In this document: piece after piece, positions 41,367 through 62,632 of the stretch
Layout: every line of letters starts with the position of its first letter
Numbering within the stretch: the first letter of the stretch is position 1
Assembly (NCBI GenBank): GCA_041651035.1
Contig: JBAZKC010000001.1
Coordinates: 62,871 to 126,870, forward strand
Source: Candidatus Omnitrophota bacterium
Lineage (GTDB): Bacteria > Omnitrophota > Gorgyraeia > Gygaellales > Profunditerraquicolaceae
Direction: 5' to 3'
Length of the DNA stretch: 64,000 nucleotides
Made by a program: the position numbers and the translations under genes
Notes under the pieces: generated by a model
What the model saw: the letters and a program-made list of their open reading frames with translations, nothing else
Database searches by the model: none
What the model was told of the DNA's origin: nothing

Positions 41367-41377
41367 TTCTCTCCTCC

Positions 41378-42463: not shown

Positions 42464-43814
42464 CTTTATCTATCGCCTCAAAAAATACGCTTAATTCAGA
42501 CTGCGCGACAGCGCCTAAGCTGGCCCGCTCTTTTATTATCAGATCATAACCGGCTTTCCTGACGCCGGCTGAAGCAAAATCGTCAAGATATTCTTTTAAG
42601 GTAACCAGGGCGTTAAAACTGCATTTATGTTTTATCAAGCCCGGCTTTGCCAAATTCATAAAGGCTTCTCCGGTGCGCTCTTTTCTGTAACAGGCCGCGC
42701 AGAAACTGGGGATATATCCCTGCCCGATCAAAGCTCCAATTACTTCTTCAAGGCTGCGCTGGTCGCCGATACAGAATTGGACATTGGTATCGGCGTTATT
42801 ATCAGAAGAAGAATACCCGCCGGGAGATGTCCTTGACTCAGCGCTTATCTGCGATATACCGAAACCGCAAAGTTCATCCCGTAGATCCGCTGCCTCCCGC
42901 GTAGAAAGTATCATTCCTGTATACGGCACTGCCAGGCGCAGGACCGCTACTACCTTTCTAAATTCGTCATCTGATACCGGATGCGGAACCTTAAAACCCG
43001 TCCCTCCGGCAGGTTCAATCCTGGGTACGGAAATAGTATGGGGCCCGACCCCGAAGCGCCCCTCAAGATGCTCAACATGAGAAAGCAATCCCAGCGTCTC
43101 AAATTTATAATCATACAGGCCGTAAAGAACACCCATACCGATATCGTCTATTCCGGCCTCGTAGGCGCGGTCGATAGCATCTATGCGGTCATCCGGATCG
43201 CTCTTAGGCCCAGCCGGATGCATCAGGCGGTATGTCGGCTCATGGTATGTCTCCTGGAATAACTGATAAGTGCCGATACCGGAGTTTTTAAGTTTTCTAT
43301 ATTCATCTACCTTAAGCGGAGCGCAATTGACATTTACGCGCTTTATCGTATGGGCTCCAACATGAGTATCATAGATAACTCCCACTGCCTGGGTATAATA
43401 ATCTACGTCGCCAGCTTCTTCTCCTCCAAGTATAAGCATACGTTTATGGCCGCGCTTAAGCAGCCACTGTGTCTGCTGGCGTATTTCATCCATACTGAGC
43501 CGGCGCCTTTTTGTTACCGGGTTATCCGAGCGGAAAGCGCAATACAGGCAGCCGTTTACGCAAAAACTGCTGACATAAAGCGGGGCAAAAAGCACCACCC
43601 TTCTTCCGTATATGGCGTCTTTAACAAAATTTGCCGCGGCAAATATCTTTTGGATATATTCCGGATCCGTAACCATAAGCAAGGCGGCGCCTTCACTTAA
43701 AGTCAAACGGTTAAGCTTTCTGGCCTTATCCAGGATCCTATCCAGCAGGCGGCTATCAAATTTTGCCGCATCACTTAATAAATTATTTATTTTCTCTTGG
43801 TCTATATAAATCAT
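42441..43814 (-). CDS. hydG: [FeFe]-hydrogenase maturation radical-SAM tyrosine lyase HydG
   Basis: 457 aa. CVNGCLYC and a C-terminal CAACX22C motif. Confidence 0.85.
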   Translation of the reverse strand: MIYIDQEKINNLLSDAAKFDSRLLDRILDKARKLNRLTLSEGAALLMVTDPEYIQKIFAAANFVKDAIYGRRVVLFAPLYVSSFCVNGCLYCAFRSDNPVTKRRRLSMDEIRQQTQWLLKRGHKRMLILGGEEAGDVDYYTQAVGVIYDTHVGAHTIKRVNVNCAPLKVDEYRKLKNSGIGTYQLFQETYHEPTYRLMHPAGPKSDPDDRIDAIDRAYEAGIDDIGMGVLYGLYDYKFETLGLLSHVEHLEGRFGVGPHTISVPRIEPAGGTGFKVPHPVSDDEFRKVVAVLRLAVPYTGMILSTREAADLRDELCGFGISQISAESRTSPGGYSSSDNNADTNVQFCIGDQRSLEEVIGALIGQGYIPSFCAACYRKERTGEAFMNLAKPGLIKHKCSFNALVTLKEYLDDFASAGVRKAGYDLIIKERASLGAVAQSELSVFFEAIDKGARDSYV

Positions 43815-46058: not shown

Positions 46059-46060
46059 AT

Positions 46061-47803: not shown

Positions 47804-47824
47804 AAATTAGTTTTTTCCTCTTCT

Positions 47825-48172
47825 TTAAACTAATACCTCAAAAATACAATCATTGACCAGCATCTTGGAGATAACATGCTTTTCCAGTATCTTTATGGCT
47901 ACCTCTTTATTCACTGTGCCATAGACTACTGAAGGCAGGCCTACAACACTTACCTCCACCAGCGGCTCGGCATAACAGGAGCCTGCGCAGCCGCATTTCT
48001 TGATCTGGATCTGCAGGTTCCTCTTTTTTACTTCCTCAACAAAAAAATTGAAAACATCTTCGGCTCCGGCGGCAATCCCGCAACTACCCATGCCCACCTT
48101 AATCCAATCTTTGGGCTTATCAGTTGAGGCCTTATTCATCTTTTCTAAATCGCCCGGGGTTAACTTATTCAT
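47825..48172 (-). CDS. Thioredoxin-like [2Fe-2S] ferredoxin domain protein
   Basis: 115 aa with four Cys (GSCGI...KCGCAGSC). The same domain is fused to the N-terminus of the 1048-aa NuoF-like protein in the neighbouring operon. Confidence 0.6.
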   Translation of the reverse strand: MNKLTPGDLEKMNKASTDKPKDWIKVGMGSCGIAAGAEDVFNFFVEEVKKRNLQIQIKKCGCAGSCYAEPLVEVSVVGLPSVVYGTVNKEVAIKILEKHVISKMLVNDCIFEVLV

Positions 48173-48178
48173 AATCAG

Positions 48179-48652
48179 TTATTCCTCTTTAATATATTTG
48201 GATAAGATATCGGCAATCTCATCCTTTTTTACCTTACCGTATACTTTATTATCAATCATCACGACAGGGGCTAAACCGCAACAACCCAGGCACCTGACCA
48301 CATCCAGATGAAAAAGACCGTCCTTGGTAGTCCGGCCTTCTTTGACGCCTAAAATATTTTTTATTTCATCCAGGATTGCCGCCGCCCCCCGTAAATAACA
48401 GGCTGTCCCCATGCACAAGGCAATGCGATGCTTACCAGGAGGAACCAACTTAAAGAAATTATAAAAAGTAATTACCTCATAGATCCTGGCCAGCGGGACA
48501 TCTAACATCTTGGATAATTCCAATGACAACTCCCGCGGCACATAACCATGATGATTCTGGATCTCATGCAGGATCATGATTAAATTGCCTTCTTTGCCTT
48601 TCCATTGTTCTACAAGGCTGATCAATTCCGGATTAAGTTTCTTATGTTCCAT
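48179..48652 (-). CDS. hydC: NuoE-like [2Fe-2S] subunit HydC
   Basis: 157 aa. CMGTACYLRG...CLGCCGLAPV Cys pattern of the 24-kDa subunit family. Confidence 0.8.
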   Translation of the reverse strand: MEHKKLNPELISLVEQWKGKEGNLIMILHEIQNHHGYVPRELSLELSKMLDVPLARIYEVITFYNFFKLVPPGKHRIALCMGTACYLRGAAAILDEIKNILGVKEGRTTKDGLFHLDVVRCLGCCGLAPVVMIDNKVYGKVKKDEIADILSKYIKEE

Positions 48653-50568: not shown

Positions 50569-53500
50569 CTAATTACCTTCTTTGATATCGCACCTCAAAC
50601 ATCTATTTGCTTCAGCGCAGGCCTGCTTTAAAGATAACCCCAAAGAAACCTCTCTAAAATTATTCTGCCTCTTTTTTATTTCCAGTTTCCCGCTCTCCTC
50701 TTTTTTAGATGCCTTTACCCCTAAGGGAACCTGGGATTTATATGAAAATTTACGTAAGAGCCTCGGGAACCTGTCTTCTTTACTTAAGGCCAGGTCAATT
50801 GCCCTGGCAGCTTTTTTACCATCAGACATTGCCTCAACCGCAGTCCCCGGCCCCATAACTAAATCCCCTCCGGCATAAACTTTATCCAAACTGGTCTTTA
50901 AATTAAACCTCCCTGCTTTAACTGTCCCATCCTGATTAATTAGAATGCCGCACTCCTTAATAAACTCCGCATCTACTCTTTCTCCGATTGCCAGAATTAC
51001 AGTATCACAGGGGATCTGAAAGACTTCATCAGTGGCAACCGGCTTTCTTCTTCCGGAGAGATCATAATCCCCTAAAGCCATTATCGTCGCGCTTATTCCA
51101 TTGACCTTGCCGCGGGCATCTGCCTTTATGGCTTTGGGGCCGGCTAAAAATATAAATTTAACACCCTCTAATTCCGCCCCCTTGATCTCATCTTTATTTG
51201 CCGGCATATCTTCTTTCTCTCTGCGATAAACAATAGTTACGTCACTACCTAACCTTAAAGCTGTACGCGCGGCATCAACCGCGACATTACCCGCGCCGAT
51301 TATTACCACCTTTTTCCCAATAGGCGGCTTTTTACCAACTGCTACATCTTCCAGGAATAAAATGCCTGATAATACCCCTTTAAGATTTTCTCCCGGAATG
51401 CCTAAACCCATACTCTTATAAGCCCCGGTTGCCAGAAATACGGCATCCGACTCTTTGATCTTGCTTTGTAAATTGCGCGCGCTGATTCTTTTGTTACATA
51501 AAATCTTCGCCCCCATCTTCTGCACAAAAGAAATTTCTTTCTTTAATACTGACTTTGGCAGCCGGTATTCCGGGATACCATAGCGTAAAACTCCCCCCGG
51601 CTCGGGATTAGCTTCATATATGACAACATCGTGGCCGAGACGGCTAAGATAAAAACCCGCAGTTAATCCGCTGGGCCCCGCGCCGATTATAGAAATCTTC
51701 TTGCCGGTTTTTGGTAATCTTTCCTTAAACAGGCCCTGGATAATTTTTGCTTCCTGCTTACCTTTATATATACTATCGGCAATATACCTGTGGATTTCTC
51801 CCTGCGAAACCGGATAATCAATATCCTCCCTGCGGCAGCGCATTTTACAATGAAAATGACAGATCCTGCCAGTGGAAGATGGAAAAGGGTTATCCCGGAT
51901 AATACACTCAAACGCCTCGGTTAATCTGTCTTCTTTAAATAATTCCAGAAAACCGGGGATATTCATATGCAATGGGCAGCTATTCTCACAAGGGGAGATA
52001 AAAAGTTCTGAACATATCCCGCCGTCACAACGCTGCTGTTGGATATGCTCCTCATATTCAGGCTTAAAATATCTAAGCGTAGTAAGCACAGGATTTGGCC
52101 CGGTTTGACCTAATCCGCAAAGGGCGGTATCTTTAATTGTAGCCCCTAAATCCTCTAAATCCTCTAAATCTTTCTGAGTAGCCTTACCTTTTGTGATATT
52201 AGTCAGGATGTTTAAGCTTTGGTTTAACCCTTCCCGGCAAGGAGTACATTTACCGCAGGATTCGCTGGTTGTAAATTCAGTAAAATAACGCGCCACATCA
52301 ACCATGCAATTATCATCATCCATTACTACCATGCCGCCGGATCCCATGATCGCGCCCAAAGAAGCCAGATTTTCATAATCAATCGGGGTATTAAATAATG
52401 ACGGGGGGATGCATCCTCCGGAAGGCCCGCCGCTCTGTAAGGCCTTAATCTTTTTATTTGTGCCGGTTCCTGCGCCGATATTATAAATAAGTGTCTGTAA
52501 AGTTGCTCCCAGGGGCAATTCCACCAATCCGGTATTTTTTATCTTGCCCACGAGAGAGAAAACTTTAGTTCCGGAACTATTCTGGGTTCCTGTCTGCGTA
52601 AACCAATCCGCCCCCTTGGCAATAACAACCGGGATATTGCTCCAGGTTTCGACATTATTAATATTAGTGGGCTTATCCAGATACCCTTTTTGCGCGGGAA
52701 ATGGCGGACGGGGAGTAGGCCTCCCCGAACGGCCAGCAAGAGAAGAAATTAAAGCCGTTTCTTCTCCGCAAACAAATGCGCCGGCACCTTCTACTAACTG
52801 CAGGTTAAAAGAAAACCCGCTATCAAATATATTCTCGCCCAAAAGCCCGTAATCCCGGGCATCAACAATTGCTTTTTTTATCCGCTCGACTGCCAAAGGG
52901 TATTCTGCGCGCACATAAATGATCCCGGAAGAAGCTCCCATCGCATATGCGCCGATAATCATTCCTTCTAAAAGCATGTGCGGGTCGCTTTCGCCTTCAT
53001 TACGGTTCATATACGCGCCAGGGTCTCCTTCATCAGCATTACAAATAATGTATTTTTCGCTTGAATTTTCCTTACGCATCAATTCCCATTTTATCCCGGT
53101 GGGAAAACCTGCCCCTCCCCTGCCCCTTAACTTTGATTTTTTTACTTCCGCGATCACAGCTTCCGGTTTAAGATCTCTTAGAACACTTAACAAGGACTGG
53201 TATCCACCTACGGCAATATATTCCTCTATATCTTCAGGGTTAATCAAACCGCAGTCCCTTAAAACAATTTTTTTCTGCCACTTAAAGAATGGGATCTTGT
53301 CCCAATCGGATATCTGCTTGAATCCTTTACCGTAAGAAACCTGTCCGGTAATATGATCCCAGGACTCAATTTTGCATAACGCTCTCCTGGGATTAATATT
53401 ATTACTACTCAACTCTTTAACTATAGATTCTACGTCTTTAGGTAAAACCGAGTTTAAAATAACCAGGGGTTTGCCGGGTAAGGAAATGTTAACTAACGGC

Positions 53501-53715
53501 TCTTGGGCGCAAAAACCAAAACAGCCTACTTTAGTAAGTAAGGCCGGAACTTTTCTTTTATCCAGAGCGGCGCGAAATGCCTGAAATACCTCCTCTGCGC
53601 CATTACCAATACCGCAGGTCCCCATCCCTACTGCGATACGTGGCTTATTCGGCAATATTTTCGCCAGGCCTTTTTCTCTGATTATCCTTAAATCTTCGGC
53701 GTTTTTGATTTTCAT
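50569..53715 (-). CDS. Fusion protein: thioredoxin-like [2Fe-2S] + NuoF-like (FMN/NADH, 4Fe-4S) + GltD/NfnB-like FAD/NAD(P)H oxidoreductase
   Basis: 1048 aa. N-terminal GMGTCGIG...KVGCFGFC, then GRGGAGFPT and CGKCTPCREG, then a GltD N-terminal Fe-S region (CxxxxC...C...CHFHCKMRC) and two dinucleotide folds (IIGAGPSGLTAG, VIIGAGNVAVDAART). Confidence 0.8.
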   Translation of the reverse strand: MKIKNAEDLRIIREKGLAKILPNKPRIAVGMGTCGIGNGAEEVFQAFRAALDKRKVPALLTKVGCFGFCAQEPLVNISLPGKPLVILNSVLPKDVESIVKELSSNNINPRRALCKIESWDHITGQVSYGKGFKQISDWDKIPFFKWQKKIVLRDCGLINPEDIEEYIAVGGYQSLLSVLRDLKPEAVIAEVKKSKLRGRGGAGFPTGIKWELMRKENSSEKYIICNADEGDPGAYMNRNEGESDPHMLLEGMIIGAYAMGASSGIIYVRAEYPLAVERIKKAIVDARDYGLLGENIFDSGFSFNLQLVEGAGAFVCGEETALISSLAGRSGRPTPRPPFPAQKGYLDKPTNINNVETWSNIPVVIAKGADWFTQTGTQNSSGTKVFSLVGKIKNTGLVELPLGATLQTLIYNIGAGTGTNKKIKALQSGGPSGGCIPPSLFNTPIDYENLASLGAIMGSGGMVVMDDDNCMVDVARYFTEFTTSESCGKCTPCREGLNQSLNILTNITKGKATQKDLEDLEDLGATIKDTALCGLGQTGPNPVLTTLRYFKPEYEEHIQQQRCDGGICSELFISPCENSCPLHMNIPGFLELFKEDRLTEAFECIIRDNPFPSSTGRICHFHCKMRCRREDIDYPVSQGEIHRYIADSIYKGKQEAKIIQGLFKERLPKTGKKISIIGAGPSGLTAGFYLSRLGHDVVIYEANPEPGGVLRYGIPEYRLPKSVLKKEISFVQKMGAKILCNKRISARNLQSKIKESDAVFLATGAYKSMGLGIPGENLKGVLSGILFLEDVAVGKKPPIGKKVVIIGAGNVAVDAARTALRLGSDVTIVYRREKEDMPANKDEIKGAELEGVKFIFLAGPKAIKADARGKVNGISATIMALGDYDLSGRRKPVATDEVFQIPCDTVILAIGERVDAEFIKECGILINQDGTVKAGRFNLKTSLDKVYAGGDLVMGPGTAVEAMSDGKKAARAIDLALSKEDRFPRLLRKFSYKSQVPLGVKASKKEESGKLEIKKRQNNFREVSLGLSLKQACAEANRCLRCDIKEGN

Positions 53716-54275
53716 TTCCTGCTCCTGCGCGGAGAAATACCTTTAACAATCTTACGCATTTTCTCCTTAGTCATGTGGCTATAAATATTCCCATCCACCT
53801 CAACTACCGGGGCCAGCGCGCACTGGCCAAAACAGGCAACGGTTTTAATCGTGAATTTATTATCCTTTGTTGTCAGAGATGGTTTGCCGTCTTGGCTGAA
53901 ATCATCTTCCTTAAAGCCAAATAAATTAATCAAAAAATCCAGCAGGTTTTTTGAACCGCGCGTATGGCAGGCTGTCCCGCGGCAGACAATAATCGAATGC
54001 TCTCCTTGCGGCTTAAGGTTAAAGAAGGCATAAAAAGTAATAATATTATAAATCCTGGATAAAGCTATGTTGGTTTCTTGGGCAATATACTCTAAGGTGC
54101 TTTGAGTAAGATATTTATGCTGATTTAATTTCTGGGCTTCTTCTAATATCCCCAAGATGCTTCCCGGCTTGCCTTGATACCTGGAAATAATTATATCTAA
54201 CTTTGTTTTGTCCTGTCCTAACCCTAAAAATTCTTCTTTTTTATCTTCAACCTTAATCATTTTATTTAGCTTCAA
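53712..54275 (-). CDS. NuoE-like [2Fe-2S] subunit
   Basis: 187 aa. CRGTACHTRG...CFGQCALAPV. Confidence 0.8.
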   Translation of the reverse strand: MKLNKMIKVEDKKEEFLGLGQDKTKLDIIISRYQGKPGSILGILEEAQKLNQHKYLTQSTLEYIAQETNIALSRIYNIITFYAFFNLKPQGEHSIIVCRGTACHTRGSKNLLDFLINLFGFKEDDFSQDGKPSLTTKDNKFTIKTVACFGQCALAPVVEVDGNIYSHMTKEKMRKIVKGISPRRSRK

Positions 54276-54911: not shown

Positions 54912-54929
54912 TTGTTATTTTTTTCACAA
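54912..54929. promoter_or_regulatory. Rex-box-like palindrome TTGTTAT-TTTT-TTCACAA immediately upstream of the rex ATG
   Basis: Matches the 18-bp TTGTGAA-N4-TTCACAA Rex consensus at 16 of 18 positions. Confidence 0.5.
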
Positions 54930-54973
54930 TATATTTTAATTATAACGTCAGCTATATTTTTGTCAAGGATTTT

Positions 54974-54991
54974 TTGTGATTTATTTCACAA
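54974..54991. promoter_or_regulatory. Rex-box palindrome TTGTGAT-TTAT-TTCACAA
   Basis: Matches the Rex consensus at 17 of 18 positions. Lies 64-81 bp upstream of the rex start. Confidence 0.6.
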
Positions 54992-55017: not shown

Positions 55018-55533
55018 TTACGCTCCTTTTTGTAGAAATGATAGCAATGATTGTATGATTACCAGCGGGCTTGGCGGGCACCCCGGAATATGTAATACCA
55101 CCGGTAATATATTTCCTACCGCGCCTTCGACATAATAAGAATCTTTAAAAATCCCGCCATTTAACGCACAGTCTCCGGCGGTAATAACAAATTTGGGCTC
55201 AGGCATGGATTCGTAAGTCTTTTTTAACGCCAGGCACATATTCTTAGATACGGGGCCGGTAACCAAAAGCGCGTCTGCGTGGCGCGGAGAAGCAACGAAA
55301 TTTATCCCGAACCGCCCTAGATCGTAAATAGGGTTATTCGCCGCGGCGATCTCCGATTCACAGGCTCCGCAAGAACCGGAATCTAGCTGGCGTATATGCA
55401 AAGACCTGCCGAATCTTTTCCGGATCAAAAGCTTCAATTCCGGTCCGGCTGATTCTATCTGGCGGGATAATCCCGGCTCAATATGCCTGGTTACAACGCC
55501 TTTTAATATCCTATTCCTTAATATATGTATCAT
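55018..55533 (-). CDS. NuoB / group-4 hydrogenase small-subunit-like protein (proximal 4Fe-4S Cys retained)
   Basis: 171 aa. SCGAC...GDCALNGG...IPGCPP. Confidence 0.75.
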   Translation of the reverse strand: MIHILRNRILKGVVTRHIEPGLSRQIESAGPELKLLIRKRFGRSLHIRQLDSGSCGACESEIAAANNPIYDLGRFGINFVASPRHADALLVTGPVSKNMCLALKKTYESMPEPKFVITAGDCALNGGIFKDSYYVEGAVGNILPVVLHIPGCPPSPLVIIQSLLSFLQKGA

Positions 55534-55536
55534 ATT

Positions 55537-57114
55537 TTATAGGTCATTGCCTGAATACGACAGATCAAAACTCTTATTGCAAAGCGGAAAATCCGGGATT
55601 ATGTTTCCTAATACAGCGTAAGATAACCCCTGCCAATTAAAAAAAGAAGGGTCTACAACTTTACACCGCCTGATCTGCCCCGTGGGATCTGTCTTAAGCC
55701 AATATAAAACAGGACCCCTCCATCCTTCCGAGTAACCCAGAGCACTTCCTCCTCTTGGCTTTAATTCAGAAGTAATTTCTCCGTCCTTATTAAGCTTGCG
55801 CGCGAACTCTTCAATTAAACGGCAGGATTCTTCAAATTCCAGGACCCTGATCCGCAGCCTCGCTAAAACATCTCCTGATTCTTGTAAGGCCATTTTGAAT
55901 CCAGCTTCCTTGTACACCCCGGAAAAATATTTTCTTAAGTCCATAGGAATGCCGCAGGCACGGGCGGAAAGTCCGACTGCTCCCAGGTCTTCAGCTGTTT
56001 TCCTACGCAACAGGCCTGTAGTATCTACCCTATCCATAAAAGAAACACTGGAATAGAGTATCTTGGTTAATTCGCTAAAGTCCTTCTTTAGGCTCTTAAG
56101 AGACCTCAAAAGCATTTGTTTCTTAGTTTCATCTATGCCTGTTAAAACTCCTCCTACTGTATTAACATTTTTAAGGTACCTGCTCCCGGTAAGCTTATCG
56201 TTTAACTGGAGCATACTTTCCTTAATAATAGAGGCGTAGGCGGCCGGAAAACTAAACCCTACGTCAAGGGCGATGCCGCCGATATCGTTTACATGATTAT
56301 ACATGCGTTCCAGCTCAAGAAAGATAGCTCTTAAATAAGCGGCTTGCGCGGGAACCGATACTCCGAAGATCTTCTCTGCTGCCTGAGTAAACGCCAGGCT
56401 GTGCGCGAAACTTGAATCTCCTGACACGCATTCTGATAGCCTTACCGCGTTACGGCAAGGCTTGCCTTCAAATATCTTTTCTACCCCTCTATGGGTAAAA
56501 CCTAAGCGGATCTCTAAATTTATTATCGGCTCTCCGGCGACGCTAAAGCGGAAATGCCCGGGCCCGATAATACCGGCATGCACCGGGCCAACAGGGACTT
56601 CAAATACTCCCACTCCTTCAACCCTATCAAACTTATATTCGCTTAACTGCCCGGGATCCATTTTCTGAAAATCCTTGCGCAAAGGAAAATTATCCGGCGG
56701 GCAAACTTCATCATGCAGGCGCAGCCGCCTTAGATCGGGATTACCTTTAGGCTCAATACCGAACATCTCCCGTATCTCTCGCTCGAAAAGGCTGGCTGAA
56801 TATACGCTTTTAGCCAGCGAATCAAAACAAGGATCATCCTGCGGAATATCCATACTGACAATGATCCACTGGCTTTTTTTCAAATTCAAGAATACGGAAT
56901 TGATTACGAACTTAGCCGAATCCCCGCGTTCATCACAGGCAAACAGCATCATTACCGAAGAAGGAAGTATTTTATGCAGTAAAAGACAGGTGTCTTTGAA
57001 ATCCTGCGCCCTTACCTTAATGGTTATTTCATCAGGGTAATCCCGCGAAACCGAAAGCGCGTTAAAACCGGGAATTTTATTTTTTATACCGGCAATAACT
57101 TCTGAGCTATCCAT
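55537..57114 (-). CDS. NuoC-NuoD fusion / HycE-HyfG-like large subunit lacking the C-terminal [NiFe] CxxC (Ehr-like)
   Basis: 525 aa. N-terminal NuoC-like (~150 aa) plus a NuoD/[NiFe]-large-subunit fold. N-motif region RLSECVSGDSSFAHS has a single Cys. The C-terminus reads VVDPSFFNW where hydrogenases have DPCxxC. Confidence 0.7.
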   Translation of the reverse strand: MDSSEVIAGIKNKIPGFNALSVSRDYPDEITIKVRAQDFKDTCLLLHKILPSSVMMLFACDERGDSAKFVINSVFLNLKKSQWIIVSMDIPQDDPCFDSLAKSVYSASLFEREIREMFGIEPKGNPDLRRLRLHDEVCPPDNFPLRKDFQKMDPGQLSEYKFDRVEGVGVFEVPVGPVHAGIIGPGHFRFSVAGEPIINLEIRLGFTHRGVEKIFEGKPCRNAVRLSECVSGDSSFAHSLAFTQAAEKIFGVSVPAQAAYLRAIFLELERMYNHVNDIGGIALDVGFSFPAAYASIIKESMLQLNDKLTGSRYLKNVNTVGGVLTGIDETKKQMLLRSLKSLKKDFSELTKILYSSVSFMDRVDTTGLLRRKTAEDLGAVGLSARACGIPMDLRKYFSGVYKEAGFKMALQESGDVLARLRIRVLEFEESCRLIEEFARKLNKDGEITSELKPRGGSALGYSEGWRGPVLYWLKTDPTGQIRRCKVVDPSFFNWQGLSYAVLGNIIPDFPLCNKSFDLSYSGNDL

Positions 57115-58541
57115 AATATATCCTTTTTTATAAACGGAAATACGATCCCTAAAGCCAAGGTGAGAGAAAACAAGAATAAAAATGCCAGTTTCCCGCTTAA
57201 CGGCTCCCCTGTTATAGCCATAGCCTTGGGAAGGTTACCAAAAAGCATCTTTCCGAAATGATAAATGAATGCCCCGAAAATAACCGACAGAAATAATAAT
57301 AACAGGGCGGCTGTTAAGTATGAACCGTTAGTGAACGCGGAAATAACGATCAATATCTCGCTTACGAATATGGCAAACGGCACAAACCCTGTAAGCGCAA
57401 ATACCCCCATCAATACCATAACGCCCGTAAACGGCATTGCCTCAATTACTCCCCTGATAGCGTTCATATTATGTTTCTTATATGCGCTGACAATATTACC
57501 CGCCCCGAAGAACATAATCGACTTAGCCACAGCGTGATTAAGGACATGCATGGCCGCCCCGGCAATGGCCAAAGGCGAACCCAGGCCAAAACCGATGACA
57601 ATTATTCCGACGTGTTCAATGCTGCTGTAGGCAAGAAGGCGTTTTAAATCTTTTTGGACCAGGATAAATCCGCAGGATATAACCAAAGAAACTAAACCCA
57701 GCAAGGTCATCAAATGCGCAAAATACGCGAAACCCACGCCCTTGATTACGATAATGCCAAACCTTAAAATGGCGTAGATAGCCGTCTTTAACAAGACGCC
57801 GGAAAGCAACGCACTTATCGGAGCGACTGCCTGACTGTGGGCATCGGGTAACCAGGTGTGCATCGGCGCAAGGCCTGCCTTTGTCCCGTATCCGACAAGG
57901 ACAAAGATAAAGGCGATTTTCAGGATATTTTTATCCAATATGTGCGCGACAGGAACCATATCTGACCAATTCAAACTCTTAGACAAGCCGGAAATTGAAA
58001 AAGCGTAGGAAAAAAGGATCGTCCCTAAAAGTGCCAGGATTATACCCGCTGAGCAAATAATAATATATTTCCAGGCGGCCTCGACTGATTCCTTGGAATT
58101 ATAAAACCCTACCAGGAATGCAGAAATAAGCGTAGTCATTTCAATAGCCGCCCAAAGCATGCCTAAATTATTAAGCGCGGGGACAAATAGCATAGAAAAA
58201 CAGAATAGATTAAAAAGAACATAATAAACTTTCGCCTTCTTTTCGGATACCATTCCTTTATGGATATCCTTATTGATGTAGCCGATAGAATAAAGCGCGG
58301 CGGCAAAGGCTACTACGGAAATAACAAAAATAAAAAAAACGCTTAAGACATCCAGATATATAAAATTACCGCATAGTTTAAGGCTTCCTGATAATACTAT
58401 ATTCCTAAAAAGCAGAATAGCCTCGGACAGCACAACCAGGTACCCCAGACTATTGGCTACCCCATAAACCTTCTGTTTCTTAATAAACAGCGCGGCTAAT
58501 GCGAGTAAAACAGGGATACTCAAGATAACGAATATCTGCAT
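57084..58541 (-). CDS. NuoM/N-MrpD-like antiporter-type membrane subunit (HyfF-like)
   Basis: 485 aa. GTKAGLAPMHTWLPDAHSQA motif. Confidence 0.8.
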   Translation of the reverse strand: MQIFVILSIPVLLALAALFIKKQKVYGVANSLGYLVVLSEAILLFRNIVLSGSLKLCGNFIYLDVLSVFFIFVISVVAFAAALYSIGYINKDIHKGMVSEKKAKVYYVLFNLFCFSMLFVPALNNLGMLWAAIEMTTLISAFLVGFYNSKESVEAAWKYIIICSAGIILALLGTILFSYAFSISGLSKSLNWSDMVPVAHILDKNILKIAFIFVLVGYGTKAGLAPMHTWLPDAHSQAVAPISALLSGVLLKTAIYAILRFGIIVIKGVGFAYFAHLMTLLGLVSLVISCGFILVQKDLKRLLAYSSIEHVGIIVIGFGLGSPLAIAGAAMHVLNHAVAKSIMFFGAGNIVSAYKKHNMNAIRGVIEAMPFTGVMVLMGVFALTGFVPFAIFVSEILIVISAFTNGSYLTAALLLLFLSVIFGAFIYHFGKMLFGNLPKAMAITGEPLSGKLAFLFLFSLTLALGIVFPFIKKDILWIAQKLLPV

Positions 58542-58545
58542 AAAA

Positions 58546-59178
58546 TTATCCTTTCAAACGCGAAAGCTTATTTACGTCAATATGCGTAAAGAGCTTGTTA
58601 ATCCTGTAGACAAACAAACCCATAATGATTACACTGACGAATACATCCAGAAATATGGCGATCTCTACAAAAAACGGCATGCCTCCTGAAACAAACGAAG
58701 CAAACAAAAATACCCCGTTTTCCATTACCAAAAGCCCGGTTACCTGGGTAAAAGCCTTCATACGCGATACCATGAGAAAGGCTCCGATAAGAATCACGGA
58801 AAAAGCTACTGTAATGGCGGCCAATCTGTAATCACGGCTAAAACCTAAAGCCCCGGAGAAGATCCATGAGAGATAAGTAAGTATGAATGCTACGAGTAGT
58901 GAAAGCTGCGCGTTGACAAAAAGGCCAAGGCCCTGGTCTACGCTTATCTTTTTGGCTACCTGGCTTAAAACACGGGGTATTATTAAAACTTTTAGAAGCA
59001 AAATGAGCAGGGCGATAAAACATAGATCCACCTGCTTTTCCGCAAATCCGGTAAATAAGGTTGCCAGAAAAATAAAAAACGACTGGTAACGGAAACTGCG
59101 TATCAGCGCCGGCACCCTTTTGGCGATAACCATAAGGTATGTCGTGATTAAAACTCCAAATAGGATCACCTCTCTCAT
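58546..59178 (-). CDS. HyfE-like small membrane subunit
   Basis: 210 aa, ~6 TM. Its position within the Hyf-like gene order supports the call. Confidence 0.5.
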   Translation of the reverse strand: MREVILFGVLITTYLMVIAKRVPALIRSFRYQSFFIFLATLFTGFAEKQVDLCFIALLILLLKVLIIPRVLSQVAKKISVDQGLGLFVNAQLSLLVAFILTYLSWIFSGALGFSRDYRLAAITVAFSVILIGAFLMVSRMKAFTQVTGLLVMENGVFLFASFVSGGMPFFVEIAIFLDVFVSVIIMGLFVYRINKLFTHIDVNKLSRLKG

Positions 59179-59179
59179 A

Positions 59180-60100
59180 TTAAACTCCCAGTACCGCGCA
59201 TACTACCGCGATAACTCCTAATATAAAAGCAAAACCCAGGAAATCGGCTACCCGGAATAACCGCATCTTTGCTACCGTTACTTCTACCAGGGCCACCGCG
59301 GCTGCTATAATGATTATTCTGATTAAATACCATAAAACCCAGAGAGCCGATTGTACCGGACCGCTGATAGCCGGCAAGCCGATAGGAAAGATTACCTGCG
59401 CGATCAAAAAGAATAAAACCATCTGTTTTATATAGGAAGCCGCTTCTATAATAGCAAGTGACCTGCCTGAATACTCCAAAACCATCGCCTCATGCACCAT
59501 GGTCAACTCAAGATGCGTTTCCTGGTTATCCACCGGCACACGGGAAGTTTCCGCTAGAGTAACAAGGAATAATGTTGCTGAGGCGGCAAAGGAAGAAACC
59601 GATACCGGATGCATGCCGCTAAAAGCCGTAATATCCGTAGAGCCGAATTCTAAAGACAACGAGAATATTGCCAAACAAAGCGCCGGCTCAACCAGGCTTG
59701 AGATAAACATTTCTCTGGATGAGCCCATCCCACCAAAAGCGCTTCCAGTGTCTAGCGCCGCAAGCGCCAGGAAGAAACGGCCTAAGGCAAAAATAAATAT
59801 CAAAACCAGGAAATCACCGATGTGGAGCGCGGGACTGGAGAAAATGAATACCGGGATAAATAAAGCAGCGGCCAGTGAAGAAGAAAATACCACAAAAGGG
59901 GTTACCCTGAATATCCAGGAGGCAGTATCTGAGACTACTTCTCCTTTTGAAAAAAACTTAGCTAAATTATAATAAGGCTGAAAAACACTCTGGCCTTTAC
60001 GCATCCTGATATTATTCTTTATCCTGGTGATCAGGCCGCTTAAAAGCGGGGCTAACCCGATAAATAAAATCAATTGTGAAATAAACAATACGATCTTCAT
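59180..60100 (-). CDS. NuoH/HycD/HyfC-like membrane subunit
   Basis: 306 aa with a conserved RxxxGQSVFQPY-like loop. Confidence 0.75.
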   Translation of the reverse strand: MKIVLFISQLILFIGLAPLLSGLITRIKNNIRMRKGQSVFQPYYNLAKFFSKGEVVSDTASWIFRVTPFVVFSSSLAAALFIPVFIFSSPALHIGDFLVLIFIFALGRFFLALAALDTGSAFGGMGSSREMFISSLVEPALCLAIFSLSLEFGSTDITAFSGMHPVSVSSFAASATLFLVTLAETSRVPVDNQETHLELTMVHEAMVLEYSGRSLAIIEAASYIKQMVLFFLIAQVIFPIGLPAISGPVQSALWVLWYLIRIIIIAAAVALVEVTVAKMRLFRVADFLGFAFILGVIAVVCAVLGV

Positions 60101-60104
60101 TTTC

Positions 60105-62012
60105 TTAAAAATTACGCATAAATATTATCAATAATAACACCGTAACAAAAATATACCCCAGATACAGATGGATACTGCCCGGCTGGATCCTTCTCATAGA
60201 CTTCGCTGTCTTAAAAACCAAAGCAAGCATAGGATCATAAATATATTTCTTAAATACCTTTGTCGTATGCGTCTCATAGGTAAAAGATTTGACATGGTAA
60301 AACGATTCTCTTACCTTTTGCGTCCGGCGGTAAGGCAGCAAGAAGAAACTAAAGGCGATCCTGAATGGTTTTGAAAAAGCCGTCGCGGTGTATTCGTTAC
60401 GCGGGCCTGTTTTATAGTAACCACAGTCCCAGGTCTTATATATTACCGCCTTTCTCCTGCTGAATAACTTATATATCATAAAACCCGACAGCCCCAACAG
60501 GACCAAAATTAACCCCAGCAAAGGCATAGAAAGATAAATACCTTTTCCTGTCTGCGGGCTTAAGGTAAAGTTATTGACAGAAAAATTCATCTTACTGATA
60601 TCTAACCCCGCAGCCGCACCTGCGACTTTTGCCAATAATTTTACGATTCTTACGGCGGCCAATCCGAAAATAACGGTCAAAAACGACAAGAAAAACATGC
60701 CTGCTTTCATGGATAAAGAAACTTCTTTTGCGTCTTTGGCATAATGGCTTCGAGGCTGAGCCAGGAAGGTTATTCCGAAGGCCTTTACAAAACAGGCAGC
60801 GGCCAAGCCGCTGGTTAAAGCCAGCATTGCCGCGCATATCCCCAGAAAAAGCTTAACCCCTCCTGTTACGTTAAGAGCTCCCAAAAAGAACGCCTGTAAA
60901 GTCAACCATTCGCTTACAAAACCATTAAGGGGCGGAAGAGCAGAAATCGCCATCGCGCCTAATAAAAAATACACCGCTGTCTGCGGCATTTTCTTAATCA
61001 ACCCCCCTAACTTTTCCATATCGCGGGTCCCGGTGGCCTTATATACGCTGCCGGCGCACAAAAACAGGAGTCCTTTAAAAATGGCGTGATTTATTAAATG
61101 ATACAAACCGGCGATCAAAGAAAAAACGGCTAAATAAGGCAACTTCAGGCTGATAAAAAACATTGCCAGCCCTACCCCTAACAAAATTATTCCAATATTT
61201 TCTACGCTGTGATACGCGAGCAGCCTTTTGATATCATGTTCCATAAGCGCATAAATTACTCCTACCAGGCAAGAAATCACCGCAAGGATCAGGATTAAAA
61301 CTCCCCACCAGGAAGAATTTACGCCGAGAATAAAGATCACAAACCGGATTATTCCGTAAATGGCAGTTTTGATCATTACGCCCGACATAATACTGGAAAT
61401 ATGGCTCGGCGCCTGTGGATGGGCGTAGGGCAACCAGATATGCAAAGGCACGACGCCGGCTTTAGTCCCGAATCCGGTCAAGAGCAATAAAAATACGGTG
61501 TTTTTAGTTCCCAGGGGCATGGTTTGGCAGGCATTCTTTATCGCCAGATAATCAAAAGAACCCGAGTATCTATACATGATCAGGAACGCGGCTGTTAAGA
61601 AAGCAGTGCCGATGTGCGTCATTACGATATAAATCATGCCCGCGTTTATGGATTTCTCGTGTTTTGTATCAAATACCACCAGAAAATAGGAAACCAGAGA
61701 CATGATCTCCCAGAACACCAGGAAAGCCAGGACATTGTTTGTAGTAACTACCAACGCCATGGACAATACAAAGACAAACAATAAAAACCAGGCAAGTATT
61801 ATTTTGGCAGGCGGATAGTGGCTATCTTCTGCCGCGGGAGGATTACCCTTCGGCGAAAAGTAACCAATAGAGTAAACAGCAGATGGCAGAGAAATAACGC
61901 AGATCACAAAAAGGAAGAATAAGGAAAGCGGATCAAATAAAAAGAATTGTTTTCCCGGGATATCCATCATTAAAACCCAAAGGCCATATAAAAAGTAAAA
62001 AACCTTCATCAA
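60105..62012 (-). CDS. NuoL/HyfB-like antiporter-type membrane subunit
   Basis: 635 aa. GTKAGVVPLHIWLPYAHPQAPSHIS motif. Confidence 0.8.
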   Translation of the reverse strand: MMKVFYFLYGLWVLMMDIPGKQFFLFDPLSLFFLFVICVISLPSAVYSIGYFSPKGNPPAAEDSHYPPAKIILAWFLLFVFVLSMALVVTTNNVLAFLVFWEIMSLVSYFLVVFDTKHEKSINAGMIYIVMTHIGTAFLTAAFLIMYRYSGSFDYLAIKNACQTMPLGTKNTVFLLLLTGFGTKAGVVPLHIWLPYAHPQAPSHISSIMSGVMIKTAIYGIIRFVIFILGVNSSWWGVLILILAVISCLVGVIYALMEHDIKRLLAYHSVENIGIILLGVGLAMFFISLKLPYLAVFSLIAGLYHLINHAIFKGLLFLCAGSVYKATGTRDMEKLGGLIKKMPQTAVYFLLGAMAISALPPLNGFVSEWLTLQAFFLGALNVTGGVKLFLGICAAMLALTSGLAAACFVKAFGITFLAQPRSHYAKDAKEVSLSMKAGMFFLSFLTVIFGLAAVRIVKLLAKVAGAAAGLDISKMNFSVNNFTLSPQTGKGIYLSMPLLGLILVLLGLSGFMIYKLFSRRKAVIYKTWDCGYYKTGPRNEYTATAFSKPFRIAFSFFLLPYRRTQKVRESFYHVKSFTYETHTTKVFKKYIYDPMLALVFKTAKSMRRIQPGSIHLYLGYIFVTVLLLIIFMRNF

Positions 62013-62156: not shown

Positions 62157-62212
62157 GGGGGACGTTTCTTCAGCTAAAGCCTGCCTGCCGGCAGGCAGGC
62201 GAGATCTGTCCC
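62157..62212 (-). terminator. Composite hairpin element: GGGGACGTTTCT ... [22-bp perfect palindrome GCCTGCCTGCCGGCAGGCAGGC] ... AGATCTGTCCCC
   Basis: The outer arms match the 7407-7438 hairpin family. The embedded GC palindrome (62179-62200) also occurs at 9079-9098. Located downstream of the 62213-62632 gene. Confidence 0.45.
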
Positions 62213-62632
62213 CTAAAAAGAAGTCCTGGAACGGGATCTGCGGCGAAGAAACAGCATTATCCTGGCTAAGAAAATAATCATAATAAACACAAAACTTAAG
62301 CTGCGCAGGCGCCTTAAAATGGTTATCTGGCTCTTCTTCTCTTCAACGATATTGCTCAGGAATTTTTCCGGGTCTTTTATACCCGCCAATTCCTTCTTGA
62401 AATCACCGGCTTCTCTTAGTCCAAAACTGGGCTTATCATCAGAGAACACCCTCTTTAATTCATCCTCAAGCCCCTTCTCCGCTCCTACCTGATAAGCAAC
62501 AAGCAATTTATCATAGAGGTATATTTGCGCGCCATAACGCATAATCTTTCTTACCGCGTAAATGTTGGCAAATAAAAACAGGAATGAAAGCAGCACCATG
62601 ATAAATATGTTTATTTTTCTTTCGTTATCCAT
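62213..62632 (-). CDS. Hypothetical small membrane protein
   Basis: 139 aa with TM helices at both ends. Confidence 0.4.
   Translation of the reverse strand: MDNERKINIFIMVLLSFLFLFANIYAVRKIMRYGAQIYLYDKLLVAYQVGAEKGLEDELKRVFSDDKPSFGLREAGDFKKELAGIKDPEKFLSNIVEEKKSQITILRRLRSLSFVFIMIIFLARIMLFLRRRSRSRTSF

Follow-up and report, generated by a model that had tools for sequence, protein, structure and literature searches.

A six-gene operon assigned to the Ehr family in a Candidatus Omnitrophota genome, with a large subunit devoid of Ni-Fe cysteines

Here, we describe a membrane complex encoded by a six-gene operon in a Candidatus Omnitrophota metagenome-assembled genome, found in a 64,000-nucleotide stretch of DNA (hereafter the window). 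The genes are almost certainly ehrABCDLS and thus encode the six subunits of an energy-converting-hydrogenase-related (Ehr) complex. The Ehr family is already named and widespread and comprises Cys-less relatives of group 4f-type [NiFe] hydrogenases; its function is described as unknown in the literature (PMC10284858, PMC6349859, PMC7894505). The complex, though descended from [NiFe] hydrogenases, is itself neither a hydrogenase nor complex I. We propose that the complex may be an ion translocator that is modulated, rather than driven, by its remaining Fe-S cluster, and give this explanation as a whole, Ehr identity included, a probability of roughly 0.45.

Operon structure and family assignment

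The six open reading frames (ORFs) are intact, lie on the minus strand at 55018-62012 and are spaced by 1-4 nt, except that ehrD and ehrL overlap by 31 nt (Table 1). Their order is HyfB/NuoL-like, NuoH-like, HyfE-like, HyfF/NuoN-like, NuoC-D fusion and NuoB-like, in agreement with a preliminary description of this DNA, which had also called the complex Ehr-like. Both points were borne out, the former by Pfam/NCBIfam E-values of 1e-20 to 1e-191 for the six families and the latter by the match to the ehrABCDLS architecture. EhrA carries a 10-aa insertion absent from aligned homologues, and its real start is probably Met15/16 (61965-61970), judging from the same homologues. Directly upstream of ehrA is a 139-aa ORF (62213-62632), with no cysteine and no Pfam match; between it and ehrA is a GC-rich palindrome, the probable 5' boundary of the transcription unit, and on its far side are genes for ABC-2 permeases. 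Directly downstream of ehrS is rex, as already described, and no strong terminator was found between the two.

Table 1 Features of the ehr operon and its borders (positions within the window).
Feature	Position	Strand	Description	Evidence
ehrA	60105..62012	-	HyfB/NuoL-type antiporter-like subunit, 635 aa from TTG start	PF00361 2.4e-59; NF005086 HyfB 4.3e-191
ehrB	59180..60100	-	NuoH/HycD/HyfC-type membrane anchor, 306 aa	PF00146 1.6e-31
ehrC	58546..59178	-	HyfE-like membrane subunit, 210 aa	NF008556 9.5e-21, under its cutoff; BLASTP E. coli HyfE 1.5e-13
ehrD	57084..58541	-	HyfF/NuoN-type antiporter-like subunit, 485 aa	PF00361 1.2e-44; NF005044 HyfF 2.1e-132
ehrL	55537..57114	-	NuoC-NuoD fusion, HycE-like large subunit, 525 aa	PF00329, PF00346, PF00374; HycE 7z0s_E 6.5e-58
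EhrL L1-motif equivalent CVSGDS	56413..56430	-	residues 229-234	HycE R239->Cys229, C241->Ser231, C244->Ser234
EhrL L2-motif equivalent FDLSYSGNDL	55540..55569	-	residues 516-525, extreme C-terminus	HycE C531->Ser519, C534->Gly522
EhrL Gly184	56563..56565	-	in place of hydrogenase proton-relay Glu (HycE E193)	alignment
ehrS	55018..55533	-	NuoB/HycG/MbhJ-type small subunit, 171 aa	PF01058 1.9e-27; MbhJ 2.3e-33, HycG 1.2e-32
Palindrome	62179..62200	.	perfect, 22 nt, GC-rich, past the upstream 139-aa ORF	sequence
Rex-box-like site	54974-54991	-		1 mismatch
Rex-box-like site	54912-54929	-		2 mismatches
Sigma-70 promoter	-35 54961-54966; -10 54939-54944	-	between the two Rex-box-like sites, directly upstream of rex	12/12

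GTDB species representatives carrying the Ehr architecture numbered at least 598, and ABCDLS is the dominant gene order among 80 loci from many phyla. The closest 50%-identity representatives are mostly Cys-less and share a Ser...Gly replacement in the large subunit, and in a rough neighbour-joining tree the query is nested within the Cys-less block. The complex of Geobacter sulfurreducens (EhrA-D, L and S; GSU0739-45), whose names EhrA, C, L and S fit the window's genes (PMC7894505), shares the six subunit types, the A B C D L S order, the large subunit without CxxC but with the Ser...Gly replacement and an 'SGD' motif, and the small subunit with four cluster cysteines. EhrA is a single gene in the window and is split in some other Ehr lineages.

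The former Ni-Fe site

Residue alignment with HycE, MbhL, Nqo4 and NuoCD showed 0/4 Ni-Fe cysteines in EhrL, with Ser, Ser, Ser and Gly instead, and revealed no CxxC pair that had been missed by eye. Their absence, as claimed in the preliminary description, therefore stands, but part of its basis was a misplaced motif: VVDPSFFNW (residues 486-494, 55633-55659), which had been taken to replace DPCxxCxx[HR], corresponds in the alignment to HycE RAATYANW. The only Cys of the L1 region, C229, had been noted and takes the place of the conserved L1 arginine, not of a ligand, while Asp233 is the aspartate of the Ehr-specific 'SGD'. The last residue of EhrL corresponds to HycE R537, and the protease-cleaved C-terminal extension is missing. 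Judging from these residues, EhrL cannot bind Ni-Fe.

The replacements themselves are conserved: Ser519 and Gly522 occur in 100% and 99% of 119 Omnitrophota homologues, and each in 78/79 sequences across phyla. The former site is a pocket of Ser231, Asp233, Asp284, Ser519 and Gly522 (Ser-Asp-Asp-Ser-Gly), with 91-99% conservation of these residues in bacteria and archaea. E. coli HycE (PDB 7Z0S) is the best match of EhrL both in sequence (6.5e-58) and in structure (TM 0.93; AF2 model, pLDDT 88.6). Residue alignment gave no EhrL equivalents of the complex I quinone-site His/Tyr (H224/Y273). At the proton-relay position, Gly is found in 98% of the 119 Omnitrophota homologues and Glu in 76/79 Cys-less large subunits of the fetched loci; the three with Gly are Omnitrophota (L004-L006). 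The pattern used for the genome scan favoured Glu-containing sequences. The Gly184 replacement is a signature of the Omnitrophota clade, which differs from other Ehr complexes by Gly (98%) for the near-invariant Glu of the beta1-beta2 loop and Cys (90%) for the L1 Arg.

The small subunit and the missing relay

EhrS retains four cysteines, as previously stated: C55, C58, C122 and C152 match the cysteines that hold the proximal cluster in MbhJ, HycG and NuoB and make up the hydrogenase-type CxxC...C...C ligands for one [4Fe-4S] cluster. All four are retained in 7/7 compared Omnitrophota loci and in 64/72 Cys-less loci having a small subunit (about 89%); among 81 small subunits in total, 72-76 have the cluster cysteines. 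In eight lineages, 2-4 proximal-cluster ligands are replaced, and the pocket, the antiporter residues and the whole operon are retained.

EhrS has no fused ferredoxin domain, and no NuoI-, HyfA- or HycF-type 2x[4Fe-4S] protein or domain is encoded in or beside the cluster, including upstream beyond 62012. This absence had been recognised earlier, and it is not unusual: the module is missing in 68/79 Cys-less Ehr clusters, for which its absence is normal. A NuoI-type module is present in 6/7 loci with a Cys-containing large subunit vs 11/79 Cys-less ones, so that loss of the NuoI relay goes with loss of Ni-Fe, in a count of loci without phylogenetic correction.

The membrane arm and related complexes

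Both antiporter-like modules have complete and conserved Glu/Lys/Lys/Glu sets, consisting of Glu102 (TM5), Lys184 (TM7), Lys215 (TM8) and Glu368 (TM12) in EhrA and of E134, K221, K252 and E395 in EhrD. In EhrB, E138 (NuoH E157), D191 (D213), E198 (E220), E209 (E228) and R280 (R293) are 96-100% conserved among 73 homologues, and the conserved residues of EhrC are K63, E153, E172 and D178. Positions separating Cys-less from Cys-containing complexes are located in the EhrL pocket; EhrB has none, and EhrS has one conservative Glu/Asp site.

The Cys-containing group 4f-type relatives compared (putative 'Ehf'; Thermincola, Desulfotomaculum, Peptococcaceae and Negativicutes) share the six-gene order and about 40% identity in the large subunit, and their membrane and coupling subunits are indistinguishable from those of the window's complex at conserved positions. 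They differ in having the four Ni-Fe cysteines and, in 6/7 cases, a fused or separate NuoI-type ferredoxin domain. The window's gene order is also that of hyfB-C-E-F-G-I of E. coli hydrogenase 4. Compared with Hyf/Hyc, however, HyfA/HycB, HyfD, HyfH/HycF and the HycI/HycH accessory genes are missing, and EhrL lacks the Ni-Fe ligands, the proton-relay Glu and the C-terminal maturation peptide.

Complex I and the MBS/MBX complexes of Pyrococcus share the NuoB/C/D-type cap, the NuoH-type anchor and Mrp-type antiporter modules with the window's complex. Complex I likewise has no Ni-Fe cysteines, but the window's complex lacks its three-cluster chain, N-module and quinone His/Tyr, and EhrS has CxxC where NuoB has tandem CC. 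In contrast to MBS, the proximal cluster of EhrS keeps four Cys and EhrL has no vestigial Ni-Fe cysteines (PMC8165549). Mrp antiporters share a pair of MrpA/MrpD-like subunits that bear the canonical Glu/Lys set and, in our proposal, secondary ion translocation without net chemistry; they have no NuoH-type subunit, NuoB/C/D cap or Fe-S cluster, all of which the window's complex has, and the latter has no MrpB, C, E, F or G.

The rex and [FeFe]-hydrogenase neighbourhood

The perfect sigma-70 promoter between two Rex-box-like sites (consensus cited in PMC6391272) is that of rex and of the hydrogenase genes that follow it; it marks the 3' boundary and lies outside the Ehr complex. Neither in the window nor in six other Omnitrophota loci does a Rex box (<=3 mismatches) occur in the 350 nt preceding ehrA. 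The rex/hyd neighbourhood is found at 0/7 other Omnitrophota loci, all of which have the six genes but unrelated flanks, and 0/80 loci of other phyla have rex, nuoE, nuoF or hydA nearby; one locus (L091) shares the upstream synteny with the window and not the rex-hyd block. The adjacency to rex and the two [FeFe]-hydrogenase operons is specific to this genome, and the suggestion that it hints at the role of the complex is not upheld. The ehr genes are a self-contained unit, which the rex/[FeFe]-hydrogenase genes do not accompany elsewhere and do not visibly regulate. No recurring partner family was found in the ehr flanks.

Proposed mechanism and alternatives

In the mechanism that we propose, to which we give slightly less than even odds, the membrane arm (NuoH-type E-channel, HyfE and two antiporter-like modules) would move H+ and/or Na+ across the membrane. 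The former Ni-Fe pocket would have been rebuilt into a hydroxyl/carboxylate site of Ser231, Asp233, Asp284 and Ser519, with Gly522 giving space, and would load protons or cations into the E-channel, to the exclusion of redox chemistry. The EhrS cluster, exposed at the usual NuoI location, would be the redox input, receiving its electrons straight from a soluble carrier of low potential (ferredoxin, for example), and would modulate or gate transport without handing electrons to a bound substrate. We favour such a translocator because the NuoI relay is lost with Ni-Fe, the pocket is conserved, the antiporter residues are intact, and eight lineages lack the last Fe-S cluster with all else unchanged.

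Somewhat less probable is a primary redox pump. Here, a low-potential Fe-S protein (reduced ferredoxin or another) would dock on EhrS instead of NuoI and reduce its [4Fe-4S] cluster, electrons would exit to an acceptor in the remodelled pocket or to a second soluble carrier, and the exergonic step would drive H+/Na+ pumping as in Ech, MBH and MBS. In its favour, the characterised relatives are all redox pumps (PMC8165549), the EhrB coupling loop and both antiporter modules are intact, 11/79 Cys-less complexes have a NuoI-type relay, and Geobacter Ehr proteins are commoner on formate (PMC7894505). The retention of cluster ligands in most Cys-less complexes and all compared Omnitrophota copies fits electron throughput no less than gating. 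Against a pump are the absence of acceptor-type residues (Cys thiolates at ligand positions, quinone His/Tyr), the full four-Cys ligation of the cluster, unlike in MBS, the lack of a conserved cis donor or acceptor gene in 87 loci, the eight lineages without cluster ligands and the joint loss of NuoI and Ni-Fe.

Two schemes with partner enzymes are improbable. One, built on the hint in the preliminary description, places Ehr in a complex-I-like assembly with the Rex-controlled [FeFe]-hydrogenase modules next to it (a NuoE-like protein, a NuoF-GltD fusion and a HydA that has NuoG-like domains), coupling H2/NAD(P)H/ferredoxin to ion translocation. The shared strand, the adjacency, the gap between ehrS and rex without a strong terminator and the homology of HydC, HydB and HydA to NuoE, NuoF and NuoG agree with it, but the adjacency does not recur, rex has its own promoter and Rex boxes, and a NuoI-type bridge to EhrS is absent. 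The other, slightly less probable still, in which a molybdopterin formate dehydrogenase from elsewhere in the genome feeds formate electrons to Ehr, was proposed for Margulisbacteria and Saganbacteria (PMC6349859), has been suggested for Geobacter, and agrees with proteomic and transcriptomic correlations with formate and formate dehydrogenase (PMC7894505; bioRxiv 10.1101/2025.08.29.672306). However, an FdhF-like gene is absent within 10 kb in 87 Ehr-type loci and throughout the window, and the Ehr of Margulisbacteria, like that of Firmicutes, carries a NuoB-NuoI fusion (PMC6349859, supplementary note 4) that the window's complex lacks. It is hardly credible that the genes encode a hydrogenase working through unconventional ligands or a true complex I, or that they are a decaying pseudo-operon. 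Pfam NiFeSe_Hases and Complex1_49kDa matches and the NCBI product name 'NADH-quinone oxidoreductase subunit C' point to the first two, but the hydrogenase features missing from EhrL contradict the one, and the absent quinone His/Tyr, CxxC instead of tandem CC and the absence of NuoA, I, J and K contradict the other, the NuoE/F-like genes belonging to the neighbouring hydrogenase unit under its own promoter. Decay is excluded by the six intact ORFs and by the 99-100% conservation of the replacement residues among 119 homologues.

Within the proposed ion translocator, the pocket of the Omnitrophota may work differently from the family consensus because the clade has lost the beta1-beta2-loop Glu. 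The NuoI-type relay kept by 11/79 Cys-less complexes suggests that, for these lineages at least, the delivery of electrons is important. The rise of Geobacter Ehr proteins on formate (PMC7894505) and the acid-pH induction of a Methylocystis group-4f complex together with formate dehydrogenases (bioRxiv 10.1101/2025.08.29.672306) are compatible with a redox role.

Gene organisation and subunit assignment

The ehr operon consists of six closely packed minus-strand genes, which the ORF listing of the window returned at exactly the coordinates of the preliminary description (see table). The intergenic gaps measure 1-4 nt, and genes 4 and 5 overlap by 31 nt, an overlap found again in every Omnitrophota homologue locus examined. 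Subunit families assigned from Pfam and NCBIfam matches bear out the families and the Hyf-like gene order proposed there, and the gene set corresponds to hyfB-C-E-F-G-I of the E. coli hyf operon (A B C D E F G H I).

Coordinates and assignments of the features discussed (L090 and L004 are Ehr loci of other Omnitrophota)
Feature	Sequence	Position	Strand	Assignment	Length	Family match
Palindrome GCCTGCCTGCCGGCAGGCAGGC	window	62179-62200		perfect, GC-rich	22 nt	
ehr operon	window	55018-62012	minus	ehrA-B-C-D-L-S		
Annotated ehrA start	window	61965-62012	minus	TTG		
ehrA	window		minus	HyfB/NuoL-like	635 aa	NF005086 (4.3e-191)
ehrB	window		minus	NuoH-like	306 aa	PF00146 (1.6e-31)
ehrC	window		minus	HyfE-like	210 aa	NF008556 (9.5e-21)
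ehrD	window		minus	HyfF/NuoN-like	485 aa	NF005044 (2.1e-132)
ehrL	window		minus	NuoC-NuoD fusion	525 aa	PF00346, PF00329, PF00374
ehrS	window		minus	NuoB-like	171 aa	
rex promoter	window	54912-54991		sigma-70, TTGACA-16-TATAAT, with flanking Rex-box-like sites		
rex stop/NuoE-like gene start	window	54272-54275	minus	overlap		
Fusion gene	window	50569-53715	minus	NuoF-like (FMN, SLBB, 4Fe-4S) + GltD/NfnB-like	1048 aa	Fer4_20, Pyr_redox_2 (GltD/NfnB-like part)
Second [FeFe] set	window	44307-48652	minus	HydC-B-A, conventional HydB	580 aa (HydB)	
Maturase genes	window	40158-43814	minus	HydG, HydE, HydF		
Hybrid-cluster (prismane) protein gene	window	35060-36346	minus			
ATP synthase genes and ehr operon	L090	1-5012		F-type alpha, gamma, beta, epsilon		
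Apparent group-4 hydrogenase cluster	L004	16678-21578				

The cluster had also been described as lacking a NuoI-type gene, and indeed no NuoI/HycF-type 2x[4Fe-4S] subunit or domain was found within it, as an EhrS fusion or as a free protein of the window. When all window ORFs of at least 40 aa were scanned for motifs, CxxCxxCxxxC pairs turned up only inside the two HydA and one HydB proteins, the gap between ehrL and ehrS is 3 nt, and the 139-aa ORF upstream of ehrA, beyond which lie ABC-2 permeases, has neither a Cys nor a Pfam match. These three observations together leave no NuoI-type gene, the position upstream of ehrA included.

The annotated ehrA start is probably too far upstream, since the homologues begin near Met15/16, and around EhrA residues 53-66 there is a 10-residue insertion (within SPKGNPPAAEDSH) that six Omnitrophota homologues lack. 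The palindrome GCCTGCCTGCCGGCAGGCAGGC lies in the interval from the 139-aa ORF to ehrA, in surroundings of 43% GC; it has no T-run and is therefore absent from the terminator-scan list. The minus strand carries all family-assigned genes of the window as well as the main run of ORFs that reach 120 aa or more, and from 1 to 64000 every 2-kb bin has a negative GC skew, so that the window is presumably a long co-oriented stretch of one replichore arm.

Metal sites and structure of EhrL and EhrS

The best match of the large subunit EhrL among PDB sequences is HycE of the E. coli formate hydrogenlyase (phmmer, 6.5e-58, residues 82-524), and residue equivalences were taken from this alignment and from MAFFT alignments with HycE, HyfG and NuoCD. 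None of the four Ni-Fe ligands of HycE (C241, C244, C531 and C534) is present in EhrL, which has Ser231, Ser234, Ser519 and Gly522 in their places. The N-terminal HycE motif RVCGIC pairs with CVSGDS, where both ligands are Ser and a lone Cys229 sits at the Arg position, and the C-terminal DPCYSC pairs with DLSYSG, right at the C-terminal end. The loss of all four cysteines, noticed in the preliminary description, therefore stands, and the alignments revealed no CxxC pair overlooked by eye; part of the reasoning was nevertheless wrong, as VVDPSFFNW, there taken for the ligand-motif counterpart, pairs with HycE RAATYANW. In 119 Omnitrophota homologues, conservation reaches 99-100% at positions 519 and 522 and 77-79% at Ser231 and Ser234.

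Other catalytic features are missing as well. EhrL terminates at the equivalent of HycE R537, which we take to be the endoprotease cleavage site, and thus has no maturation peptide, HycE extending further C-terminally; hyp genes for [NiFe] maturation are absent from the 64-kb window. At the position of HycE E193, presumably the proton-relay residue of [NiFe] hydrogenases, EhrL has Gly184, so that the hydrogenase beta1-beta2-loop Glu is missing, and the quinone-site residues H224 and Y273 of E. coli NuoCD are replaced by Ile183 and Gly232 (MAFFT). The small subunit EhrS has kept its four cysteines, as had been claimed: C55, C58, C122 and C152 correspond to the ligands of the proximal cluster in MbhJ, HycG and NuoB, and the spacing of C55 and C58 is that of a hydrogenase-type CxxC (C55-x-x-C58), not of the tandem CC of complex I. 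The AlphaFold2 model of EhrL (pLDDT 88.6, pTM 0.91) has HycE as its top structural match (7z0s_E, TM 0.93, rmsd 2.6 A), and its pLDDT falls below 50 only at the beta1-beta2 loop (178-184) and in the last three residues.

Family membership and distribution

The name Ehr reportedly goes back about twenty years, to Coppi (2005), and the discussion of a 'missing link' is said to be that of Marreiros et al. (2013). The Ech-hydrogenase-related complex of Geobacter sulfurreducens (GSU0739-45) has the same architecture as the window complex and the names EhrA, C, L and S (PMC7894505). Membership of the window complex in Ehr is well supported by this Geobacter-type architecture and by the defining CxxC loss. 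Genomic papers describe Ehr as group 4-related, close to group 4f, lacking CxxC motifs and of unknown function (PMC6349859, PMC10284858, PMC7304191), with a phylogenetic placement next to group 4f (PMC10284858). In the literature searched, no paper assigns an activity to Ehr, and neither Ehr nor group 4f appears there as the subject of biochemistry or structure determination, the mentions being genomic, proteomic and transcriptomic, which agrees with the earlier statement that the function is unresolved.

More than 100 EhrL homologues share 70-78% identity, the named ones being labelled Omnitrophota or Omnitrophica. With 1.84 billion cluster representatives searched exhaustively by HMMER, 907 homologues fell below 1e-30; among the best 150 of these, 20 have all four cysteines and about 110 lack them. 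The common Cys-less pattern replaces HycE C241 by Ser/Ala, C244 by Ser/Thr/Glu/Asn, C531 by Ser and C534 by Gly. In a rough NJ tree EhrL groups with the homologous large subunits P0121 and P0200 deep within the Cys-less block, and its nearest representatives are Cys-less.

One genome of each GTDB species was scanned, which confirmed at least 598 Ehr loci in bacteria and archaea, with the Omnitrophota variant under-sampled because the peptide pattern contains the loop Glu; exact-protein look-ups of seven Omnitrophota homologues were added to offset this bias. For comparison, 80 of the loci were kept, from Nitrospirota, Acidobacteriota, Verrucomicrobiota, Rokubacteria, Firmicutes, CPR phyla, Thaumarchaeota, Methanomassiliicoccales and others. 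Gene order is exactly ABCDLS in 34 of 83 loci and S-ABCDL in 15; further loci are variants of ABCDLS in which genes are split or doubled. Two Nitrospirota loci (L020 and L063) contain two complete ehrABCDLS copies in same-strand tandem, whose large subunits differ at the second ligand position (Ser vs Thr).

Omnitrophota Ehr is a residue-level variant and not a new architecture. Among 119 close Omnitrophota homologues, the position of the beta1-beta2-loop Glu (HycE E193) is Gly in 98% and the Arg of the N-terminal motif is Cys in 90%, while the loop Glu is kept by 76 of the 79 Cys-less large subunits of the fetched loci, the three with Gly being from Omnitrophota (L004-L006). Cys512 is present in 99% of the Omnitrophota clade and is also common elsewhere (29/79).

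The rex and [FeFe]-hydrogenase neighbourhood

Downstream of ehr on the same strand follow rex, a NuoE-like gene, a NuoF-GltD fusion gene, HydA, a second HydC-B-A set and HydG, HydE and HydF, the three maturase genes lying directly after the second hydrogenase operon. The 107-nt spacer between ehrS and rex contains a sigma-70 promoter with 12/12 consensus positions, flanked by the Rex-box-like palindromes TTGTGAAATAAATCACAA and TTGTGAAAAAAATAACAA, which have 1 and 2 mismatches, respectively, to the Rex consensus TTGTGAANNNNTTCACAA (cited in PMC6391272). With at most 3 mismatches to this 18-bp consensus, the window has 7 sites compared with 2.8 expected, and matches to a 20-bp Rex pattern with a 6-nt spacer are at chance level in the window. 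Since the promoter lies between Rex boxes and the rex stop overlaps the NuoE-like hydrogenase gene at its start, rex looks like the first gene of an [FeFe]-hydrogenase operon, and Rex appears to autoregulate this rex-hydrogenase unit. The adjacent NuoE/F-like genes are part of the hydrogenase unit, which has its own promoter, and not of ehr. Read-through from ehrS into rex may occur, as there is no convincing terminator between them.

The co-location had been taken as a hint at a role in ferredoxin/NADH-linked ion translocation, and as such a hint it is not borne out by comparison with other genomes. In seven other Omnitrophota loci the identical six-gene block has unrelated flanks, comprising MnmA/NadA; DMT, MscS and trehalose genes; LexA; pyruvate kinase; glycine cleavage genes; ATP synthase genes; and arsenic/cation efflux genes, and one locus (L091) shares the upstream ABC-2 synteny of the window without the rex-hyd block. 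In the 80 loci from other phyla, neither rex nor nuoE, nuoF or hydA occurs nearby. The co-location is thus not evidence of a functional link, and it is by accident of gene order that 'Rex + hydrogenase + Ehr' stand side by side in this genome. Nor does a Rex operator (TTGTGAANNNNTTCACAA, at most 3 mismatches) occur in the 350 nt preceding ehrA, whether in the window or at six other Omnitrophota loci. With the neighbourhood unconserved and the operator missing, a hydrogenase partner under Rex control was rejected. The window complex is a member of a known and widespread family; its residue signature is specific to its clade, and its neighbourhood is incidental.

The fusion of a NuoF-like with a GltD/NfnB-like part suggests that the first [FeFe] set is an NADPH-linked or otherwise non-standard HydABC. 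The hybrid-cluster protein gene is flanked by efflux and sensor-kinase genes and is apparently unrelated to ehr. In L090, a metagenome contig, the ehr operon begins 60 nt after the same-strand ATP synthase genes.

Possible function of the complex

Group 4 [NiFe] hydrogenases (Hyf/Hyc/Ech/Mbh) have four Ni-Fe cysteines, a relay Glu and a NuoI/HycF subunit, and the window complex is without all three; with 0/4 ligands, Gly184 in place of the relay Glu and no maturation peptide, an active hydrogenase was rejected. Complex I was rejected likewise, as the quinone His/Tyr of NuoD and the tandem Cys-Cys for N2 in NuoB are both missing (CxxC instead), and as the six genes, with HyfE replacing J/K, stand against a complex I operon with NuoA, I, J and K and the NuoEFG module. 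MBS/MBX has a three-Cys proximal cluster with an open Fe, two vestigial Ni-Fe cysteines and the NuoI-type MbsN (PMC8165549), whereas the EhrS cluster has four Cys, EhrL lacks the vestigial cysteines and NuoI is absent. All structurally characterised relatives (MBH, MBS, NDH and complex I) contain a three-cluster chain (PMC8165549), while the window complex would have a single cluster. The likeness to Mrp lies in MrpA/D-like subunits with TM5 Glu, TM7 Lys, TM8 Lys and TM12 Glu/Lys, but Mrp has MrpB, C, E, F and G and no cytoplasmic Fe-S cap, in place of which the window complex has a NuoH-type subunit and an EhrL/EhrS cap.

The antiporter residues TM5-Glu, TM7-Lys, TM8-Lys and TM12-Glu are complete in both EhrA (E102/K184/K215/E368) and EhrD (E134/K221/K252/E395), and the acidic E-channel and loop residues of EhrB are kept in 96-100% of 73 homologues. 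Positions that separate Cys-less from Cys-containing complexes, the latter being group 4f-type hydrogenases, lie only in the EhrL pocket (Ser231, Asp284, Ser519, Gly522 and the 'SGD' Asp233), apart from a single conservative change in EhrS; EhrB has none. The EhrL pocket residues are 91-99% conserved over bacteria and archaea, and a pseudogene reading of the operon was rejected. When separate genes and small-subunit fusions are both counted, a NuoI-type two-cluster module goes with 6 of 7 Cys-containing large subunits, against only 11 of the 79 that are Cys-less (Fisher p = 1.6e-4, without phylogenetic correction). In eight loci (L011, L016, L035, L043, L058, L070, L076 and L080, from several CPR lineages, a Methanosarcina and others; 7/8 with S-ABCDL order) two to four proximal-cluster Cys are replaced by Asp, Thr, Glu or Gly, and yet the operon is complete in these loci, with its pocket and antiporter residues retained; judged by their sequences, they would be complex-I-superfamily assemblies without any Fe-S cluster. 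The proximal-cluster ligands are retained in all Omnitrophota loci compared. Around 87 loci, probes for Rex, NuoE, NuoF and HydA were negative, an FdhF probe found no formate dehydrogenase gene within 10 kb, and unsupervised clustering of the flanking ORFs returned no recurring gene family that would be a real partner, what it recovered being mostly alternative-frame shadow ORFs of high-GC genomes.

These patterns describe Ehr as a hydrogenase-derived machine in which the electron relay was lost stepwise, with the membrane arm and a remodelled, oxygen-ligand-rich pocket kept by strong selection. Because the relay is shed and the membrane arm and pocket are kept, we favour a model in which the conserved function would be ion translocation. 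In this model the pocket would be a loading site for protons or cations, and the single [4Fe-4S] cluster of EhrS would act as a redox input modulating transport; ion loading, gating and ferredoxin docking are all steps that we infer. The main rival, a ferredoxin-driven primary pump with an unnamed acceptor, is nearly as likely as this model, since about 89% of the complexes conserve the cluster ligands and a minority keep the NuoI relay; the stepwise relay loss speaks for the ion translocator. In a bolder reading, to which we give roughly three chances in ten, Ehr complexes, that of the window included, would not be oxidoreductases but a third functional class of the complex I superfamily beside redox pumps and Mrp, namely hydrogenase-derived H+/Na+ translocators, in which the former Ni-Fe pocket would form a conserved Ser-Asp-Asp-Ser loading site for ions or protons and the remaining cluster would be a redox sensor tuning transport to the ferredoxin pool. 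If this reading holds, the Omnitrophota variant (Glu to Gly, Arg to Cys229, conserved Cys512) might add a second switch through thiols near the cluster. The loss of the NuoI relay together with Ni-Fe, the conserved pocket and the apparently cluster-free lineages are testable constraints on Ehr function, although not decisive ones. Uncultured Omnitrophota are a poor system for settling this function, and the family-level patterns are suited to work in a tractable organism.

Implications for annotation

EhrL is labelled 'NADH-quinone oxidoreductase subunit C' at NCBI, and the ehr cluster should be annotated neither as complex I nor as a hydrogenase. A phylum-wide survey of Omnitrophota scored complex I by PF00346 (PMC10066038), which EhrL matches, so that Ehr clusters may have been counted as complex I there and the respiratory capacity of Omnitrophota may be overestimated.

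In the Omnitrophota genome GCA_030650425.1 (L004), an apparent separate group-4 hydrogenase cluster lies 5 kb downstream of ehr, with Fer4_11, NADHdh, Oxidored_q6, Complex1_30kDa and a NiFeSe_Hases/49kDa large subunit, preceded by two oxidoreductase genes; if this cluster is genuine, Ehr and a true Ech-type enzyme would occur in one genome.
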